Below, one piece after another: positions 2,403 through 37,277 of a stretch of DNA of 64,000 bases; within the stretch, counting starts at the first letter, position 1, and each line of letters opens with the position of its first letter. The notes beneath the pieces were generated by a model. The model saw nothing but the letters and a program-made list of their open reading frames with translations, was not told the origin of the DNA and searched no databases. The stretch is taken from the NCBI GenBank assembly GCA_964483175.1, contig CAZAAT010000001.1:7292-71291 (forward strand), written 5' to 3'. Origin of the DNA: an uncultured Bacilli bacterium (GTDB lineage: Bacteria > Bacillota > UBA5301). Made by a program: the position numbers and the translations under genes.

Positions 2403-3000
2403 GGTAACTAATATCGCTCTCGTTGGTGTCGGTGGCCAAGGAATCATCCTAGCAGGTAAAGTTCTTGCTCAAGCCGCGGTAAACGCTGGCTTTGACGTTA
2501 AAGTCGCAGAAATCCATGGGATGGCGCAACGTGGTGGCAGCGTCATTACCCAGGTTCGTTATGGGGAAGCAGTCTTTGCCCCAACCTTTGGGGACGGAAC
2601 CGCTGATTATCTAGTGGCCTTTGAACGATTAGAAGCTCTACGGCATTTCCCGTTACTATCTGATGAAGGAGTCTTACTGCTTAGTGACACGATGCTGCAG
2701 CCGATAACCACCGCCACCGGAATGGCAGCCTATCCCAGAGATATCATTGAGCAGCTTACAGAAAAATGCCCTCAGTTTGCTAGCTTTAGCGCTGAGTTTG
2801 CGGCTGAAAAACTAGGCAACGTTAAAGTAGCCAACATCCTCATGCTGGGCATCCTCTCGACTTATCTTAGAGATATCCCGGAGACAGCCTGGCAGGAGGC
2901 TATTGACCAACTTATTCCAGAGAAGTTTCTTGAGCTAAACAAGCAAGCTTTCGCCGCCGGGGTAGATCTGGCTGCCCAACAAAAAGAAGCCGCAGTTTAG
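2386..3000 (+). CDS. iorB: Indolepyruvate:ferredoxin oxidoreductase beta subunit
   Basis: 204 aa; N-terminus IALVGVGGQGIILAGKVLAQAA (pyruvate/ketoisovalerate oxidoreductase gamma-like fold). Overlaps iorA stop by 17 nt. Confidence 0.8.
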   Translation: MKPVPKVTNIALVGVGGQGIILAGKVLAQAAVNAGFDVKVAEIHGMAQRGGSVITQVRYGEAVFAPTFGDGTADYLVAFERLEALRHFPLLSDEGVLLLSDTMLQPITTATGMAAYPRDIIEQLTEKCPQFASFSAEFAAEKLGNVKVANILMLGILSTYLRDIPETAWQEAIDQLIPEKFLELNKQAFAAGVDLAAQQKEAAV

Positions 3001-30279: not shown

Positions 30280-31749
30280 TTAACCCCGCCATCTCAGATC
30301 CGGATTGCGAGCTGCCGCGGTTTCATCTAACCTGTACACCGGCAGCTTAGTTGGTGCCTGCTGTAATAGCTCCGGATTTTGCTCGGCTTCGTGGGCAATT
30401 TGACGCATCACCTTGACAAAATCATCCAAGGTCTCTTTGCTCTCCGTCTCCGTAGGCTCGATCATCATCGCCTCCTCGACAATCAGCGGGAAGTAGATCG
30501 TCGGAGCATGAATACCAAAATCGAGCAATCGTTTGGCCATATCCAGAGTTTTCACCCCGTTGGCCTTTTGCCGTGAACCGGATAGCACAAACTCGTGCAT
30601 ACAGCGGCGCTGATACGGCAGATCAAAGTAGTCTTTTAATTGTTCTAACAAATAGTTGGCGTTGAGCACCGCATTTTCCGCAACCGCCTTCAGCCCGCTA
30701 GAGCCCATTTGTCGGATGTAGGTGTAAGCCTTCAACGCTACGAGAAAATTACCGTAGTAACCCTTGACTCTGCCGATTGACTGCGGTAAATCGTAATTAA
30801 ACTGGTAATTATCCGCCGCTTTGATCACTCGTGGTAGCGGCAGAAACGGCTCAAGTATCTTTTTGACACCGACCGGACCGGAGCCCGGGCCGCCGCCGCC
30901 ATGCGGTGCCGCGAAGGTCTTGTGCAAATTTAGATGGATTACATCAAAGCCCATATCTCCCGGACGGGTGATCCCGAGAATGGCGTTGGCATTTGCTCCA
31001 TCATAATACAAGAGTCCGCCGGCATTATGAATAATCTCAGCTATCTCCAGAATGTTCTCTTCAAACAAGCCCAGAGTATTCGGGTTGGTTAACATCAGTG
31101 CTGCTGTTTGCGGACCAACGACCCGCCGCAAAGCCTCAATATCGACATTGCCCCGGTCATCGGATGGCACCTCCACCACTTTGAAACCGCACATAGCCGC
31201 GCTGGCCGGATTGGTTCCGTGCGCCGAGTCCGGAACAATTACCTCTCGGCGCATCGCCAACTCCCCGCGATGGCGATGGTAAGCCTTGATCAACATCAGC
31301 CCTGTCAACTCGCCATGAGCTCCGGCGGCTGGTTGCAGAGTAAAAGCATCCATACCCGTTATTTCACAGAGGTACTGCTCGAGCTCAAAGATCACCTGTA
31401 AAGAACCCTGGCAAGTCTCTTCTGGTTGGAGGGGATGAATACCGGCAAACCCATCCAAGCTGGCCACATCTTCGTTGATCTTCGGATTGTATTTCATTGT
31501 ACAGGAACCAAGAGGATAAAAACCCCTATCTACGCTATGGTTGAGCTCTGACAGTCTGGTAAAATGGCGAACAACCCCGAGCTCACTCACCTCCGGTAAG
31601 ACCGGAGGATTTTGCCGCAACAAGTTTTCTGGGAGGATGGCTGATAAAGGTTGGGCTGGAACATCTAAAGCCGGCAGTGAGAAACCGGTCCGCCCGGGGA
31701 CGCTTTCGGCAAAGATCGGCTTAACTCCAGCGGTATGACTGACTCTCAT
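30280..31749 (-). CDS. gcvPB: Glycine dehydrogenase (decarboxylating) subunit 2 (P-protein C-terminal half, PLP-binding)
   Basis: 489 aa with PLP-lysine motif [18 protein letters not shown]. Overlaps gcvPA by 4 nt. Confidence 0.9.
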
Positions 31750-33089
31750 AACAACCCCCCCATTACTTTAACCAGATAATCCAGCTCTTCTTTGGTCCGC
31801 TGCTCGGTAACGCAAAAGAGCACTAGATCATCGAGCTCAGGATAGTATCTGGCCAGAGGAAGCGGTCCAAGGATTCCATATTCGACCAACCGGCTGAACA
31901 GCTCTTCCGGGTTGGCCTTGACCCGTAGGGTAAACTCATGGAAAAATGGGCCCGGTAAACCTGGACTGACCCCTTCAATGTTCAACAGTTGATCGTACAA
32001 ATAATGTGCTTTCTGGACGGAATGCTCAGCTACCTTCGCCAAGCCTTGCGGGCCTAACAGCGAAAGATATACTGTTGCCGCCAACGCATTAAGGGCTTGG
32101 TTCGAACAAATATTCGAAGTGGCCTTCTGGCGCCTGATATGCTGTTCTCTCGCCTGCAGAGTCAATACGTACCCGCGGTTTCCTGCGGCATCAGTTGTAG
32201 CCCCGACAATTCGCCCCGGCATGCGCCGCAGATACTTTTCGCGGCAGGCCAGATAGCCCAAGTGAGGGCCGCCAAAAGCCATCGGATTCCCCAACGCTTG
32301 CCCCTCACCACAGGCGATATCTACACCTAATTCTCCTGGTGGTTTCAGTAGACCGAGAGCGATCGGATTGGCCGCACAGATCAGCAAAGCTCCGTGGGCG
32401 TGCGCGATTTCAGCTAGTTGCTCGATACCTTCTTCAATTTGACCAAAAAAATTGGGATATTGCACGATAACTGCAGCGGTTTGCTCATCGACAAGATCCC
32501 GAAGCTGTTCCACAGAAGGCTTTCCGTCACTAAGTGCCCCAACAACCAGCTGTAAATCCAGGAAGTCACAATAAGTCGCTAAAACGCGTTGGTACTCCGG
32601 ATTAATGCTGGCTGAGGCCACAACTTTGGATCGCCGGGTAGCTCCCGTAGCCATTAAGGCCGCCTCCACCAACGCAGTAGCTCCATCATACAAAGATGCG
32701 TTAGAGACATCGAGTCCAGTAAGGTTGCAAATCATGGTCTGATACTCGTAAATAGCCTGGAGGGTTCCTTGGCTAATCTCTGCTTGGTACGGAGTATAGG
32801 CGGTATAGAACTCGGAGCGCCCCAAAATATGCCGAACAACGCTCGGGATATAGTGGTCATATGTACCAGCGCCTAAAAAAACCATAGCCTCAGCTGAACT
32901 AATATTTCGCGCAGCCAAAGACTTCAGGTTTTTTATCAAGATCGGTTCCGGTTCCGGCGCGGGTAATTTCAGCTCTCTGGTCAAGCGCAGACTAGCCGGG
33001 ATATCCGCAAAAAGCTCGGCAACCTGCTCTACGCCAATAGCTGCCAGCATCTCAGCTTGATCGGCAGGGGTATTTGCGATAAATGACAC
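31746..33089 (-). CDS. gcvPA: Glycine dehydrogenase (decarboxylating) subunit 1 (P-protein N-terminal half)
   Basis: 447 aa with N-terminal region ...[15 protein letters not shown]...[13 protein letters not shown] typical of GcvPA. Confidence 0.9.
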
Positions 33090-33093
33090 AGGC

Positions 33094-33477
33094 TCACTCT
33101 CCTTCTATAAAAGCCTCATACTCCTGGTTAGTCATCAGCTTATCGAGTTCGGTTAGGTCCAGCATCTCAATTACCGCAATCCATCCATCGTTATAGGGAT
33201 CCTGATTTAATAATTCCGGACTATCTTCCAAATTGTCATTGACCTCAACAACTGTTCCAGAAATCGGTGCATAAACATCCGATACGGCTTTAACTGACTC
33301 GACCACCGCAAAATCATCGCCCTTAACGACCTCCTGACCGGGCGAGGGAAGGTCGACAAAGACTACATCACCTAATTCTTTTTGCGCATAATCGGTAATC
33401 CCGACAATGGCCCGTTTTCCACTGATTCTAATCCATTCGTGTTCCTTGGTGTACTTTAAATCAGAAGGGTTCATCAC
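33094..33477 (-). CDS. gcvH: Glycine cleavage system H protein (lipoyl carrier)
   Basis: 127 aa with lipoyl-lysine motif FAVVESVKAVSDVYAPISG. Confidence 0.9.
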   Translation of the reverse strand: MMNPSDLKYTKEHEWIRISGKRAIVGITDYAQKELGDVVFVDLPSPGQEVVKGDDFAVVESVKAVSDVYAPISGTVVEVNDNLEDSPELLNQDPYNDGWIAVIEMLDLTELDKLMTNQEYEAFIEGE

Positions 33478-33489
33478 TAATACCTCCGT

Positions 33490-34599
33490 TTACGATCTTT
33501 TTGTATATGGTTGAACAAATGGGACCGAAACTACTTGGGCTTCAACCAGTTTTTCGCGGATCTTGACCCAAATCCTACTTCCCGGCTCTGAATAGGGAAG
33601 GGTTACATAACCAAGGCCGATATTCTCCTCCAAAGTTGGTGCGAAAGAACCACTGGTTACCGACCCAATAACCTCCGCAGAACTATTTAAGATTTCATAT
33701 CCGTGACGGCAGACACCCCGCCCGATCATTTTGAACCCAATCAAAGATCTAGAAAGACCTTCTTCTTTCTTGGCGACTAACGCTTTTTTACCGATAAAAT
33801 CGCCTTTATCTAATTTCACCGTCCAACCCAAACCGGCTTCCCACGGGCTTATTTCCTCAGTCAACTCCTGGCCGTACAACGGATAAGCCAATTCTAAACG
33901 CAAGGTGTCCCGGGCCCCGAGTCCAACGGGCACAAGCCCGGTACCAGCACCGGCCTGCCTCAGCTCTTGCCAGAGAAAGCTTGCATCAGCTGCATCGACA
34001 TATAGCTCAAAACCGCGCTCCCCGGTATAGCCAGTTGCCGAAATCATGGCCGGCCGACCAGCCACCCTGCCCTCGACAAACGAATAGAACTTTAATTGGG
34101 AGAGATCCTCAGAACAAAGCTTGCCTAAAATCTCCTCGCTCTTGGGGCCTTGGATCGCTAACAAGGCGGTTTCGGCCGACTGGTTAACCAAATTAACGCC
34201 GGTACTCGGCAAATAATTGGCGAACCACTCCCAATCCTTGTCGGTATTGGCTGCATTAACCACCACCAGATACCGTTCACGATCGTAGCAATAGACAATG
34301 AGGTCGTCGACGACCCCACCATTTTCAGTACAGACTAAATTATACTGCGCCTTACCTGGCATCAACTTTGCCAGGTTGTTGGTCAAAAGTCGGTTCAAAT
34401 AATCATAAGCTCCCGGCCCTGATACATAGAATTCACCCATATGTGAAAGATCAAACAGTCCTGCGCTATTACGTACCGCCCGATGCTCCTCTAGGATCGC
34501 GGTATATTGAACCGGCATTTCCCAACCGCCAAAAGGAATCATCTTGGCTTTTAGGCCCACATGTTCTGCATAAAGCGGAGTTCTTTTCCATTCAGACAT
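33490..34599 (-). CDS. gcvT: Glycine cleavage system T protein (aminomethyltransferase)
   Basis: 369 aa with the GcvT fold. RBS GGAGG 8 nt before ATG. Confidence 0.9.
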   Translation of the reverse strand: MSEWKRTPLYAEHVGLKAKMIPFGGWEMPVQYTAILEEHRAVRNSAGLFDLSHMGEFYVSGPGAYDYLNRLLTNNLAKLMPGKAQYNLVCTENGGVVDDLIVYCYDRERYLVVVNAANTDKDWEWFANYLPSTGVNLVNQSAETALLAIQGPKSEEILGKLCSEDLSQLKFYSFVEGRVAGRPAMISATGYTGERGFELYVDAADASFLWQELRQAGAGTGLVPVGLGARDTLRLELAYPLYGQELTEEISPWEAGLGWTVKLDKGDFIGKKALVAKKEEGLSRSLIGFKMIGRGVCRHGYEILNSSAEVIGSVTSGSFAPTLEENIGLGYVTLPYSEPGSRIWVKIREKLVEAQVVSVPFVQPYTKRS

Positions 34600-34620
34600 A
34601 CGTCGCCCTCCTTCGCTGAA

Positions 34621-34710
34621 TAAAAAACAGAGTAGAGAATTGGCTCTCCTCTGTCCTGATGCCTGAGAGATAAACTGCTCTGATCGCTACACAGAGGTCT
34701 CTCTTAACTA
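34621..34710 (-). promoter_or_regulatory. Glycine-riboswitch-like leader element with intrinsic terminator (ON-switch architecture) upstream of gcvT
   Basis: Minus-strand RNA reads AAGAGAGACCUCUGUGUAGCGAUCAGAGCAGUUUAUCUCUCAGGCAUCAGGACAGAGGAGAGCCAAUUCUCUACUCUGUUUUUA. The block UCUCUCAGGCAUCAGGACAGAG is identical at 19 of 22 positions to the glycine aptamer 3-prime consensus ACUCUCAGGCAAAAGGACAGAG, and a GAGAGA lies upstream. CAGAGGAGAG/CUCUaCUCUG forms a terminator stem followed by UUUUUA and overlaps the aptamer P1 3-prime strand. The P2/P3a segments and a GCCGAAGGAGCAA core could not be located by eye, so this is a variant, a singlet, or only partly recognised. Confidence 0.4.
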
Positions 34711-34980
34711 GAATCACCCGGCGGGGATGATATTTATTTGCAGTCCACCATCATCTGCTATTATTTTATCTCTTTACTGGATATTCCTACCGCTAAGCCA
34801 AAAGATTTGCTCAAATAGACCAAAAAGCCGACCGAGCTATATAATATGAACGGGTTAGTTCCGTCGGCTGAGGGGGGATACTATGGAACGCATACTCCAA
34901 CTATTACTAAACCCAATCTTAAAAAGGGCACAAAAGACCGTCATTATCATTAGAAAGCGCAGAGCATAGAGTAATTATAA

Positions 34981-35030
34981 CCACCGGAAGTGCGGAAGCA
35001 CCAAGGTGGTGTTTTTTATCCGCACTTCGA
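34981..35030. terminator. Nested inverted repeats spanning the nrdJ stop codon: bidirectional terminator-like structure
   Basis: CCACC(34981-85)...GGTGG(35005-09) hairpin followed by TGTTTTTT on the plus strand. Perfect 10-bp arms GAAGTGCGGA (34987-96) / TCCGCACTTC (35019-28) give a long hairpin on the minus strand after the nrdJ TAA. Confidence 0.45.
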
Positions 35031-37277
35031 ATATCCGCAGGCAATACAGGTAATACAGCCGCTCTCATGGCTCAATTTATGCCCACACTCCGGGCACAAG
35101 GCGAAATCTTCAGCAATGGCCGCTTCTTGCTGGGCAGCCTGAGCACCCTGCGGTTTAAAAGGTAACTGCGGCTGAAAACCACCAAGAACCTGATCCTGGA
35201 ACTTCTTGATCGCTCGGGCAATGGCATCAGGACAAGAGGTCACATTAACCTCCTTACGGCGTACGCAGGCGGCACACCGGATGCCCCGGAGCTGTTCATA
35301 AATGGTTTGCACGGAAATACCGGAGCGCAAGGAGATCGAGATCAGACGGCTGGTAGCCTCAGACTGTGAAGAACAGCCACCCTCTTTGCCGGTATTGGTA
35401 AAGACCTCACAAATCCCGAATTCATCAGCATTTACACTGACGTATAAGGTTCCGCAGCCGACTTTTACCCGTTCGGTCGAACCGGTTGTTAGATCAGGGC
35501 GTGGACGTGGGGTTATATTAGTCGGATAAAGCGGTGCTGCCTCCTCTGTACTGGACTGTTGGGTCGCTTTGGTACCGGCCGTTAACACCTGTGATTCACG
35601 ACTGCCATCCCGGTAAACGGTGACCCCTTTACACCCTTCTTGATAGGCGAGTAGATATGCCTTGGCCACATCTTCCCGGGTAGCGCTCTTGGCAAAGTTA
35701 ATCGTCTTGCTCACAGCATTATCGGTATATTTCTGGAAAGCAGCCTGGATCCTGATGTGCCATTCCGGTTCGATATCGTGGGCGGTTACAAATATCCGCC
35801 GGAACTTCTCCGGAATCGACTCAATTTCTTGAACTGAGCCATGTTCAGCAACTTTCTCCATCAGCTGCGGAGTATAAAAACCCTCTTTCTTGGCGATCTC
35901 CTCGAACAATGGATTAACTTCGACCAATTTCGTGTTATCCATAACATTGCGCACGAAGGCTAAGGCAAATAGCGGCTCGATTCCACCTGATGCCTCAGCA
36001 ATGATGCTGATCGTGCCGGTCGGAGCGATGGTTGTGGTGGTAGCATTACGAACCTTAACTCCCAACGGTTCATAGGTGCTACCCTCATAATTCGGAAAGA
36101 CTCCGCGCTCCTCAGCCAAATCAGCCGAAGCAGCCCGAGCGGTCTGCTGAATGAAAGACATAACCGCTTCTGCTGTTTCTACAGCTTTTTCGGAGTTATA
36201 GGGGACCCCTAATCTAATTAGCAAGTCGGCAAAGCCCATCACGCCCAGTCCGATTTTGCGGTTGGCCTTGACCATTTCAGTAATCCGTTCTAACGGATAC
36301 TTACTGGCATCGATGACGTTGTCGAGGAAGCGAACGGCGATCGTAATTACGCGCTCTAACCGTTCCCAGTCAATTTCCGCGTCCTCGGTGACCATCTTGG
36401 CTAAATTGATAGAGCCGAGATTGCAGGCTTCATAGGGAAGAAGCGGCTGTTCTCCGCATGGGTTTGTGCTCTCAATCTCACCAACTTGGGGAGTAGGATT
36501 GTCCCGGTTAATCTGGTCGATAAAAATAACCCCTGGCTCGCCATTGCGCCAAGCCGCGTCAACGATTTGGTCAAAAACGTCTTGTGCAGAGAGTTTACCC
36601 ACAACTTGGCCATTTCTCGGGTTAATTAACTCATAGTCTCGGTGTTCTTTGAGAGCTACCATAAACTCATCGGTGATGGCAACCGAGATGTTGAAGTTGG
36701 TCAAGTCATCATTATTCTCTTTGGCATTAATAAAAGCGAGAATATCAGGATGGTCAACCCGGAGGATACCCATGTTAGCACCGCGACGAGTGCCGCCCTG
36801 CTTAACAGCGTCTGTCGCGGCATTAAAGACTTTCATAAATGAGATCGGACCGCTGGCAACGCCACCGGTTGATAGTACTTCATCATTACAGGGCCGTAGC
36901 CGGGAGAAGCTAAATCCAGTACCGCCACCGCTCTTATGAATCAATGCGGCATGCTTAATCGAATCAAAAATTGACTCCATCGAGTCCTCAACCGGCAAAA
37001 CAAAACAAGCCGCCAACTGTTGAAGTTCACGGCCGGCATTCATCAGGGTAGGGGAGTTTGGCATAAACTCCAAATTGGTCATAATTTCCAGGAACTGCTG
37101 CTTAATAGCTTCAACAGTCTCCTGGTCTTTGCCGTAACATTCGCTTTCGACATTAGCAATGTTTTCGGCAACACGGTTAAACATCTCATCGGGAGTCTCA
37201 ACTGCCTGTCCATTAACCTTTTTTAGATATCGTTTTTCCAAAACATTCAAGGCATTTTGCGATAACTTAACTCCCAT
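35016..37277 (-). CDS. nrdJ: Adenosylcobalamin-dependent ribonucleotide reductase (class II, NrdJ) with C-terminal Cys4 zinc ribbon
   Basis: 753 aa; class II hallmarks ...MNAGRELQQLAACFVLPVEDSMESI..., thiyl-radical loop ...STNPCGEQPL..., C-terminal CPECGHK...CITCIACGYSKCG. Confidence 0.88.
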   Translation of the reverse strand: MGVKLSQNALNVLEKRYLKKVNGQAVETPDEMFNRVAENIANVESECYGKDQETVEAIKQQFLEIMTNLEFMPNSPTLMNAGRELQQLAACFVLPVEDSMESIFDSIKHAALIHKSGGGTGFSFSRLRPCNDEVLSTGGVASGPISFMKVFNAATDAVKQGGTRRGANMGILRVDHPDILAFINAKENNDDLTNFNISVAITDEFMVALKEHRDYELINPRNGQVVGKLSAQDVFDQIVDAAWRNGEPGVIFIDQINRDNPTPQVGEIESTNPCGEQPLLPYEACNLGSINLAKMVTEDAEIDWERLERVITIAVRFLDNVIDASKYPLERITEMVKANRKIGLGVMGFADLLIRLGVPYNSEKAVETAEAVMSFIQQTARAASADLAEERGVFPNYEGSTYEPLGVKVRNATTTTIAPTGTISIIAEASGGIEPLFALAFVRNVMDNTKLVEVNPLFEEIAKKEGFYTPQLMEKVAEHGSVQEIESIPEKFRRIFVTAHDIEPEWHIRIQAAFQKYTDNAVSKTINFAKSATREDVAKAYLLAYQEGCKGVTVYRDGSRESQVLTAGTKATQQSSTEEAAPLYPTNITPRPRPDLTTGSTERVKVGCGTLYVSVNADEFGICEVFTNTGKEGGCSSQSEATSRLISISLRSGISVQTIYEQLRGIRCAACVRRKEVNVTSCPDAIARAIKKFQDQVLGGFQPQLPFKPQGAQAAQQEAAIAEDFALCPECGHKLSHESGCITCIACGYSKCG

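Follow-up and report, generated by a model that had tools for sequence, protein, structure and literature searches.

A tandem glycine riboswitch acting as an ON switch upstream of gcvT is reportedly the arrangement of the Mandal et al. 2004 type. In singlet glycine riboswitches, one aptamer remains complete, has the canonical binding site, and is required for function (Ruff et al. 2016, PMC5066625). In a type-1 singlet, glycine stabilises the antiterminator by only 2–3 kcal/mol (PMC6239177). According to a published model, tandem riboswitches associated with GCV genes degrade and aptamer 1 is the last to be lost, and a route through deletion of the middle part was judged unlikely (Crum et al. 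2019, PMC6944388). The locus described here is the leader of gcvT at approximately 34721-34622 on the minus strand of the window, i.e., of the whole 64-kb stretch of DNA that was analysed. With a probability of roughly 0.8, this leader is a deletion remnant of a tandem glycine ON-riboswitch, most likely acting as a glycine-blind attenuator. It is homologous to tandem riboswitches at the same site, has undergone deletions, has lost its core, and retains its terminator. Very probably it no longer senses glycine, and attenuation would then be constitutive. All leader coordinates below refer to the minus strand and are given in the direction of transcription.

Downstream of the leader lies the operon gcvT-gcvH-gcvPA-gcvPB (30280-34599, minus strand), the genes of which are assigned by Pfam with E-values of 1e-97, 9e-48, 2e-136, and 1e-27, respectively. 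None of the four ORFs is truncated or decaying, and their lengths equal those in the related contigs L081-L086. The first gene of this intact operon, gcvT, spans 33490-34599 (minus strand; ORF and Pfam), and its ribosome-binding site GGAGG (34611-34607) is located 7 nt ahead of the ATG at 34599. According to Pfam, the gene on the upstream side of the leader encodes a class II ribonucleotide reductase (nrdJ).

The original prediction described this region as a non-canonical, glycine-riboswitch-like leader with an ON-type terminator, and all minus-strand elements that it listed are present according to sequence reading and scripted motif location. Thus, UCUCUCAGGCAUCAGGACAGAG at 34670-34649 is identical to ACUCUCAGGCAAAAGGACAGAG at 19 of 22 positions, so that direct comparison reproduces the reported similarity to the conserved 3' strand of glycine aptamers. 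The GAGAGA said to lie about 35 nt upstream was found at 34703-34698, 33 nt before the start of the 22-mer. The block was also held to be too good for chance, which is confirmed by the 21-nt motif CTCTCAGGCAWMAGGACAGAG: with up to 3 mismatches, the 64-kb window contains a single copy of it and none of 100 shuffles contains any, so that it is not a chance match.

Contigs sharing the nrdJ...gcvTHP neighbourhood (L081-L086, L087, L088, and L092) were reached through GcvT homologues. In the first GcvT scan of genome contigs the relatives had at most 54% identity among the matches listed, and some of these loci later served as controls. As for L087 and L088, their GcvT proteins are 68–69% identical to that of the window, and both contigs carry a canonical tandem glycine riboswitch at the orthologous position. 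These riboswitches score 69.8 and 66.3 bits, respectively, with RF00504 and align end to end with the tandem model RF03166, although with 95 and 83 bits they stay under its gathering score of 110. Both are laid out as P0/K-turn, aptamer 1, linker, aptamer 2, and then terminator, with the 5' strand of the terminator overlapping the CAGAG that forms the P1 3' strand of aptamer 2. The overlap of a CAGAG P1-like segment with the terminator, proposed for the window as the classic ON-switch layout, is therefore seen intact in these two orthologous leaders, and the conserved block of the window proves to be of glycine-riboswitch origin, as it corresponds to the 3' strand of aptamer 2 in the tandem form.

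The sister lineage L081-L086 is a Firmicutes/Bacillota MAG lineage with GcvT 84% identical to that of the window. In comparison with the tandem form about 55 nt are missing from its leader, so that it has neither the linker nor the 5' half of aptamer 2. The RF00504 score is 42.8 bits in L081 and L084, and 38.1 bits for L084 aptamer 1 alone. Two alternative RF00504 alignments above the gathering score are reported for L084 2829-2957, and also for L081-L086: one covers aptamer 1 including an altered 3' strand of its own (38.1 bits), and the other is a chimera in which the 5' half of aptamer 1 is joined to the 3' strand of aptamer 2, with an insert of 51 nt (42.8 bits). Judging from its alignments, the L084-type leader is possibly a singlet made by deletion, type-1-like but with an altered J3/1 and no P0 partner, and its CCUCU/AGAGG stem could be a ghost aptamer.

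In L092 (GcvT 67% identical), the gcvT leader at 2709-3000 contains neither a glycine riboswitch nor recognisable remnant motifs. Since GcvT identities are star-like, at about 67–69% among L087, L088, L092, and the window/L084 pair, the loss in L092 is taken to be independent. In loci from Carboxydothermus, Desulfosporosinus, and Halanaerobiales, too, gcvT is preceded by glycine riboswitches. Being common ahead of gcvT in such other Firmicutes-like loci, they indicate that the tandem state is ancestral and that the window is derived from it by deletion. Among these loci, L023 2418-2598 (Carboxydothermus islandicus) and L037 1196-1390 (a Desulfosporosinus MAG) have RF03166 scores of 124 and 112 bits, respectively, at or above gathering; L023 also carries a tRNA-Sec at 201-291.

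Alignment with these relatives allows the leader of the window to be read piece by piece. It begins with CCGGGUGA (34721-34714), the 5' strand of the P0 helix/kink-turn, which is identical to the L087 and L088 sequence aligning to the first RF03166 model positions (alignment A1); the 3' partner of this strand, GGACGG in L087 and L088, is deleted. The following UUCUAGUUAA (34713-34704) is the P1 5' strand of aptamer 1, since cmscan places its equivalents in L087, L088, and L084 in P1, and its 3' partner is missing as well. Position 34704 is A in the window and the first G of the conserved GGAGAG in L084, L087, and L088. The GAGAGA described above is the J1/2 purine stretch of aptamer 1 and aligns with GGAGAGA of bona fide aptamers. 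It is followed by the aptamer-1 P2 5' strand and loop, CCUCUGUGUAG (34697-34687), where P2 is taken from the cmscan alignments. This segment equals L084 up to GUGUAG (alignment A2) and is the final ancestral sequence ahead of the deletion junction.

According to alignments A1 and A2 and a pairwise alignment, the window matches L084 up to ...GAGAGACCUCUGUGUAG and again from GCAGUUUA on. Between these flanks, 61 nt of L084, GGGCGCCGAAGGAGCACGUGGCACGCGCAGGUACCAUGAAACUCUUAGGCCAAACGAACUC (running from GGGCGCCGAAGGAGCA to GGCCAAACGAACUC), are replaced with the 8-nt filler CGAUCAGA at 34686-34679, i.e., with a net loss of 53 nt. The lost 61 nt comprise the P2 3' strand, P3, P3a, P3b, and J3/1 of aptamer 1, and hence the entire glycine pocket. 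Folding, which together with the alignments delimits the filler, shows that it forms a new 5-bp hairpin, CUCUG/CAGAG. If the filler derives from CGAACUC of L084, it contains 3 substitutions and 1 insertion within 8 nt, with flanks about 97% identical. Beyond the junction, GCAGUUUA (34678-34671) is a remnant of the P3b 3' strand of aptamer 2 and the linker; it aligns with GGCAGGGUA of the L087 aptamer 2 and falls within a 5'-truncated RF00504 alignment. The 22-mer at 34670-34649 then supplies the P3a 3', P3 3', J3/1, and P1 3' strands of aptamer 2, as indicated by the RF00504 alignment and by metagenome copies. Apart from the terminator, the window thus retains nothing but the 5' edge of aptamer 1 (34721-34687) and the 3' edge of aptamer 2 (34678-34649). 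This explains why the original prediction saw no evident second aptamer and why P3/P3a and the GCCGAAGG(A/G)GCAA core escaped placement; the cause is physical deletion (61 nt to 8 nt in comparison with the sister lineage), not concealment.

The exact 22-mer CTCTCAGGCAYCAGGACAGAGG was found in 27 metagenome contigs, all of them unrelated full tandem riboswitches. In each of the 25 that extend far enough upstream to be assessed, the aptamer that it closes is the second one of a complete tandem. No deleted-type leader occurs among these 27 contigs, and the databases yielded only near-identical copies of the window allele, with no diverged homologues of the deleted form.

Those copies bear on the possibility that the gap is an assembly or sequencing artefact and that the true leader is L084-like. 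CUCU/GAGA repeats abound here and might, in principle, cause errors in assembly. However, an identical GcvT is encoded on two short contigs, L093 (ERR13909482) and L094 (SRR35904743), which come from sequencing runs unrelated to each other, and their 416-nt intergenic region is base-for-base the same as in the window, junction included. Since two independent assemblies from different sequencing projects contain the same leader, the deletion is not an assembly artefact, and a faulty gap is extremely improbable.

Covariance models speak against the reading put forward in the original prediction, according to which a compact non-canonical singlet aptamer still binds glycine. In cmscan over all 64 kb, neither RF00504 nor RF03166 has a match in the window at gathering threshold (32 bits for RF00504), and with permissive filters over 34550-35100 neither matches at E ≤ 10. 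Other riboswitch classes likewise have no match at E ≤ 10 over 34550-35100. The RF00504 positive controls were the L087, L088, and L084 leaders at the scores given above. Scanning the segment 34678-34641 by itself gives a 5'-truncated RF00504 match of 15.6 bits (E 0.2) to model positions 57-94, and the 5' remnant scanned alone has no glycine match, being too short a piece to score. The conserved 3' strand of RF00504, CUCUCAGGCAAAAGGAC, which covers the P3a and P3 3' strands and J3/1, is present at 34670-34649 with the 19 of 22 identities already noted. In contrast, the pocket core GCCGAAGGRGCAA, which is the P3/P3a 5' strand, is absent from the leader and falls inside the deleted 61 nt. Throughout the window, GCCGAAGGRGCAA has 43 matches with up to 3 mismatches versus 37 expected, which is no more than chance, and none of them is in the proximal leader. 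Nor does the leader contain a P1 closing a three-way junction, as the P1 strands at 34713-34704 and 34653-34649 are each without a partner. The predicted fold is a simple two-hairpin structure with a stability no better than that of shuffles (z = 0.38).

A compact aptamer would be consistent with the 19 of 22 identities to the conserved 3' strand, with the gcvT context and ON-type platform, and with GAGAGA, which can pair with UCUCUC as a P3a mimic. It is nevertheless very unlikely: half of the pocket is deleted with the P3/P3a 5' strand, RF00504 has no match at E ≤ 10, both surviving P1 strands lack partners, and in all characterised singlets one aptamer is still complete and has the canonical binding site (PMC5066625). 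Homology by descent is supported by the orthologous position, the nrdJ...gcvTHP neighbourhood, and flanks that align base for base with riboswitches that do score. The original prediction is therefore partly supported: the origin and the platform layout were right, and the functional compact variant was wrong.

Several other candidates from these searches were rejected. The sole match over the leader at E ≤ 10 is to DGCR5 and is spurious, as is an M-box match of the 5' remnant alone at E 6.4. A displaced core, GCCGACGGAACUA at 34868-34856, has 3 mismatches, which corresponds to chance frequency, and is not conserved in L084. The sequence GCGAAGGAGGGCGA at the ribosome-binding site, considered as a permuted core, is merely the Shine-Dalgarno region and is not conserved in L084 either. 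In the whole 64-kb window no Rfam family, not even tRNA, reaches its gathering score in cmscan.

The intrinsic terminator (34653-34622) consists of CAGAGGAGAG at 34653-34644, the loop CCAAUU, CUCUACUCUG at 34637-34628, and a U-tract at 34627-34622. The hairpin predicted just before the ribosome-binding site thus exists, but the tract following it is U6 and then A, not the U5A originally counted. According to folding, the stem has 5 + 4 bp around one G.A mismatch at the sixth pair, with a loop of 6 nt; the mismatched base at 34633 is A in the window and U in L084. The uninterrupted L084 stem has 14 pairs and is flagged by a simple scan. The stem of the window is not, and this strict scan misses it because of the G.A mismatch. 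The folding energy is −9.8 kcal/mol in the window versus −13.8 kcal/mol in L084, and in the context of the leader the pair probabilities of the terminator are about 1.0. A G+C-containing hairpin with an immediate U-tract upstream of gcvT is what an attenuator consists of, and all of these parts are found here. Covariation of the terminator across the four lineages amounts to a single compensatory pair and is uninformative.

In the predicted fold of the leader, GAGAGA:UCUCUC encloses CUCUG:CAGAG, and the terminator forms downstream. The best antiterminator fold, the 7-bp helix CCUCUGU:ACAGAGG, is less stable than this terminator state by about 5 kcal/mol. Before the 3' strand of the terminator is transcribed, the prefix folds are nearly isoenergetic, and thermodynamics does not predict read-through. 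In a type-1 singlet, terminator mutations far from the base of the stem had little effect on termination (PMC6239177). Given its position at the sixth pair, the mismatch in the window therefore probably has a modest effect.

These properties might suggest that the leader is locked OFF, i.e., that with no aptamer to hold an antiterminator nearly all transcription stops, and that gcv is effectively silent and being lost. The terminator state being the minimum free energy fold with pair probabilities of about 1.0 agrees with this, as do the intact five base pairs at the foot of the stem, the intact U6 tract, and the small effect of distant stem mutations in the type-1 singlet (PMC6239177). Such silencing is nonetheless considered unlikely, since the four gcv ORFs are full length with no decay, the allele is present in at least 3 independent data sets, and the gcvT of L092, having neither riboswitch nor remnant, shows that unregulated expression is viable in the clade.

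The comparison of the window with L084 also gives an indication of age. At four-fold synonymous sites the two are 54% identical, both in nrdJ and in gcvT, and the intergenic region is 83% identical, compared with 37 of 38 and 38 of 40 positions (95–97%) in the two remnant segments. The Jukes-Cantor correction for p = 0.46 yields about 0.7 substitutions per site in total, so that 2–3 derived changes in about 78 remnant positions correspond to approximately a tenth of the window branch. These sequence comparisons point either to a recent deletion or to continuing constraint on the remnant. Two differences are likely derived in the window, namely the first G of GGAGAG (34704) and the 3' strand of the terminator (34633). 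Judged by their positions, these changes look more like relaxed constraint or compensation than like upkeep of a sensor.

The same figures may be taken to mean that the remnant has been re-purposed as an attenuator of a new kind, kept by selection, which works without a ligand or else reacts to something other than direct glycine binding. For instance, the new CUCUG/CAGAG hairpin and the terminator could face competition from the CCUCUGU/ACAGAGG helix. In favour of this, identity to L084 is 95–97% in the remnant, next to 54% at synonymous sites and 83% over the whole intergenic region; the 8-nt filler is unusually dense in changes and completes a perfect 5-bp hairpin, and several folds are nearly isoenergetic before the terminator 3' strand is transcribed. 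However, a deletion within about the last 10% of the branch predicts equal conservation, the derived changes at 34704 and in the terminator stem at 34633 have the look of relaxed constraint, the fold is no stabler than shuffles (z = 0.38), and the lack of diverged homologues of the deleted form also speaks against it. Selection for such a function is therefore regarded as quite improbable. The same low credence applies to the broader idea that an aptamer-less platform was selected as an attenuator re-wired from the leftover helices of two aptamers and, together with L084, forms a datable series of middle deletions. If true, it would mean that glycine riboswitches are remodelled by discrete middle deletions and that an expression platform can outlive its sensor.

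The reading as a glycine-blind remnant has difficulties of its own. Unless the deletion is very recent, identity of 95–97% versus 54% at synonymous sites suggests that some function may persist, and four intact gcv ORFs sit uneasily behind an unregulated terminator. In addition, the filler creates a new hairpin, and the 7-bp CCUCUGU/ACAGAGG helix could be an antiterminator.

As for the course of events under the preferred reading of a deletion remnant, the ancestor had the order kept in L087 and L088: P0/K-turn, aptamer 1, linker, aptamer 2, and an overlapping terminator. The linker and with it the 5' half of aptamer 2 were lost in a first deletion of about 55 nt, which is common to L081-L086. 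In the window lineage, a second deletion reducing 61 nt to 8 then eliminated the P2 3' strand, P3, P3a, P3b, and J3/1 of aptamer 1. With the GCCGAAGGRGCAA strand lost, neither glycine pocket can form. The leader RNA would thus fold alike with or without glycine, and the terminator would form by default. The 22 nt separating the U-tract from the ATG leave no room for a promoter, and all gcvT transcription therefore crosses the terminator. Expression of gcvTHP would be set by glycine-independent read-through at a fixed level, which the mid-stem mismatch may slightly raise.

The surroundings of the leader bear on where its transcription may start. The original prediction assumed a leader of 400 nt, which is too long: the 416-nt intergenic region also holds a 28-aa ORF on the opposite strand, and the gcvT leader probably does not exceed about 170 nt. 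This ORF, MERILQLLLNPILKRAQKTVIIIRKRRA at 34883-34969 (plus strand), is divergent from gcvT and conserved, and is preceded by the Shine-Dalgarno sequence GAGGGGGG. A sigma-70 scan places a promoter-like TAGACC-18-TATAAT at 34816-34845 (plus strand) upstream of it. Orthologues with conservative substitutions, e.g., MEKLLQFLLNPILRKMGKTVIIIKQKNT, are present in L084, L087, L088, and L092, and the ORF has no family in Pfam or NCBIfam. A terminator-like hairpin ACCACC...GGUGGU at 34980-35010 (plus strand), identified by eye, is followed by T6 at 35012-35017 and overlaps the nrdJ stop codon. It is not flagged by the terminator scan owing to its loop of more than 8 nt. From its form and location (34980-35017), it resembles a terminator of the small ORF and may act bidirectionally.

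In L087, L088, and L092, a DedA/VTT-domain gene lies between nrdJ and gcvT (1890-2447, 1888-2481, and 2124-2708, respectively, on the minus strand of each), with the small-ORF orthologues upstream of it. The DedA/VTT gene is missing from the window and from L081-L086, where the small ORF upstream of it is retained, and tblastn reveals no remnants of the gene in the intergenic region of the window. On the minus strand, the window, L084, L087, and L088 share the conserved block GTAGGAAT-N15-ATAAAATAA at 34790-34761 (alignment A3), which contains a −10-like TAAAAT at 34768-34763. The sigma-70 scan finds no minus-strand promoter at 34761-34790, and a sigma-70-like −35 is lacking. Its conservation nevertheless makes this block the best candidate for the gcvT promoter region.

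Regarding annotation, the locus illustrates that even a motif with strong similarity to a riboswitch, located where one would be expected, can be a dead remnant, and a response of gcv to glycine should not be assumed here. Across four related lineages, the gcvT leaders at a single syntenic site range from tandem through one-aptamer and aptamer-less to riboswitch-free. This series makes the published model of tandem degradation concrete and extends it beyond the functional singleton, and its members are natural constructs for measuring the read-through of an ON-switch platform after loss of the sensor. The point is a modest one at specialist level, i.e., a natural snapshot of riboswitch decay.

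In comparison with the tandem RF00504 riboswitch, the leader occupies the orthologous position upstream of gcvT-gcvH-gcvP and keeps the P0/K-turn 5' strand and the P1 5' strand, J1/2, and P2 5' strand of aptamer 1, as well as the aptamer-2 3' strand (model positions 57-94) with a P1-overlapping terminator as in L087 and L088. Unlike the tandem riboswitch, it has lost both cores (GCCGAAGGRGCAA and P3b), the linker, and the partners of both P1 strands. Type-1 singlets with a ghost aptamer (PMC5066625; Torgerson et al. 2018, PMC6239177) are similar in being products of tandem degradation associated with GCV genes and an ON-type terminator, and the sister lineage L081-L086 resembles them in having one scoring aptamer followed by an aptamer-2 remnant. 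The window, however, has no complete aptamer, unlike the singlets (PMC5066625), and is nearer to a state of "ghost plus platform only". As for the glycine-GGAnGA variant RF03166, it belongs to the same clan and its gathering score is reached by the gcvT leaders of L023 and L037, whereas the leader of the window has no match even at E ≤ 10. The order from tandem (L087 and L088) through one aptamer (L084) to none (window), with absence in L092, agrees with the degradation model of PMC6944388. It departs from that model in that the steps are discrete internal deletions of about 53–57 nt, the route judged unlikely there, rather than gradual erosion, and in that the window is past the stage of a functional singleton. 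The feature is thus a degenerate derivative of a well-known riboswitch class and not a new mechanism.
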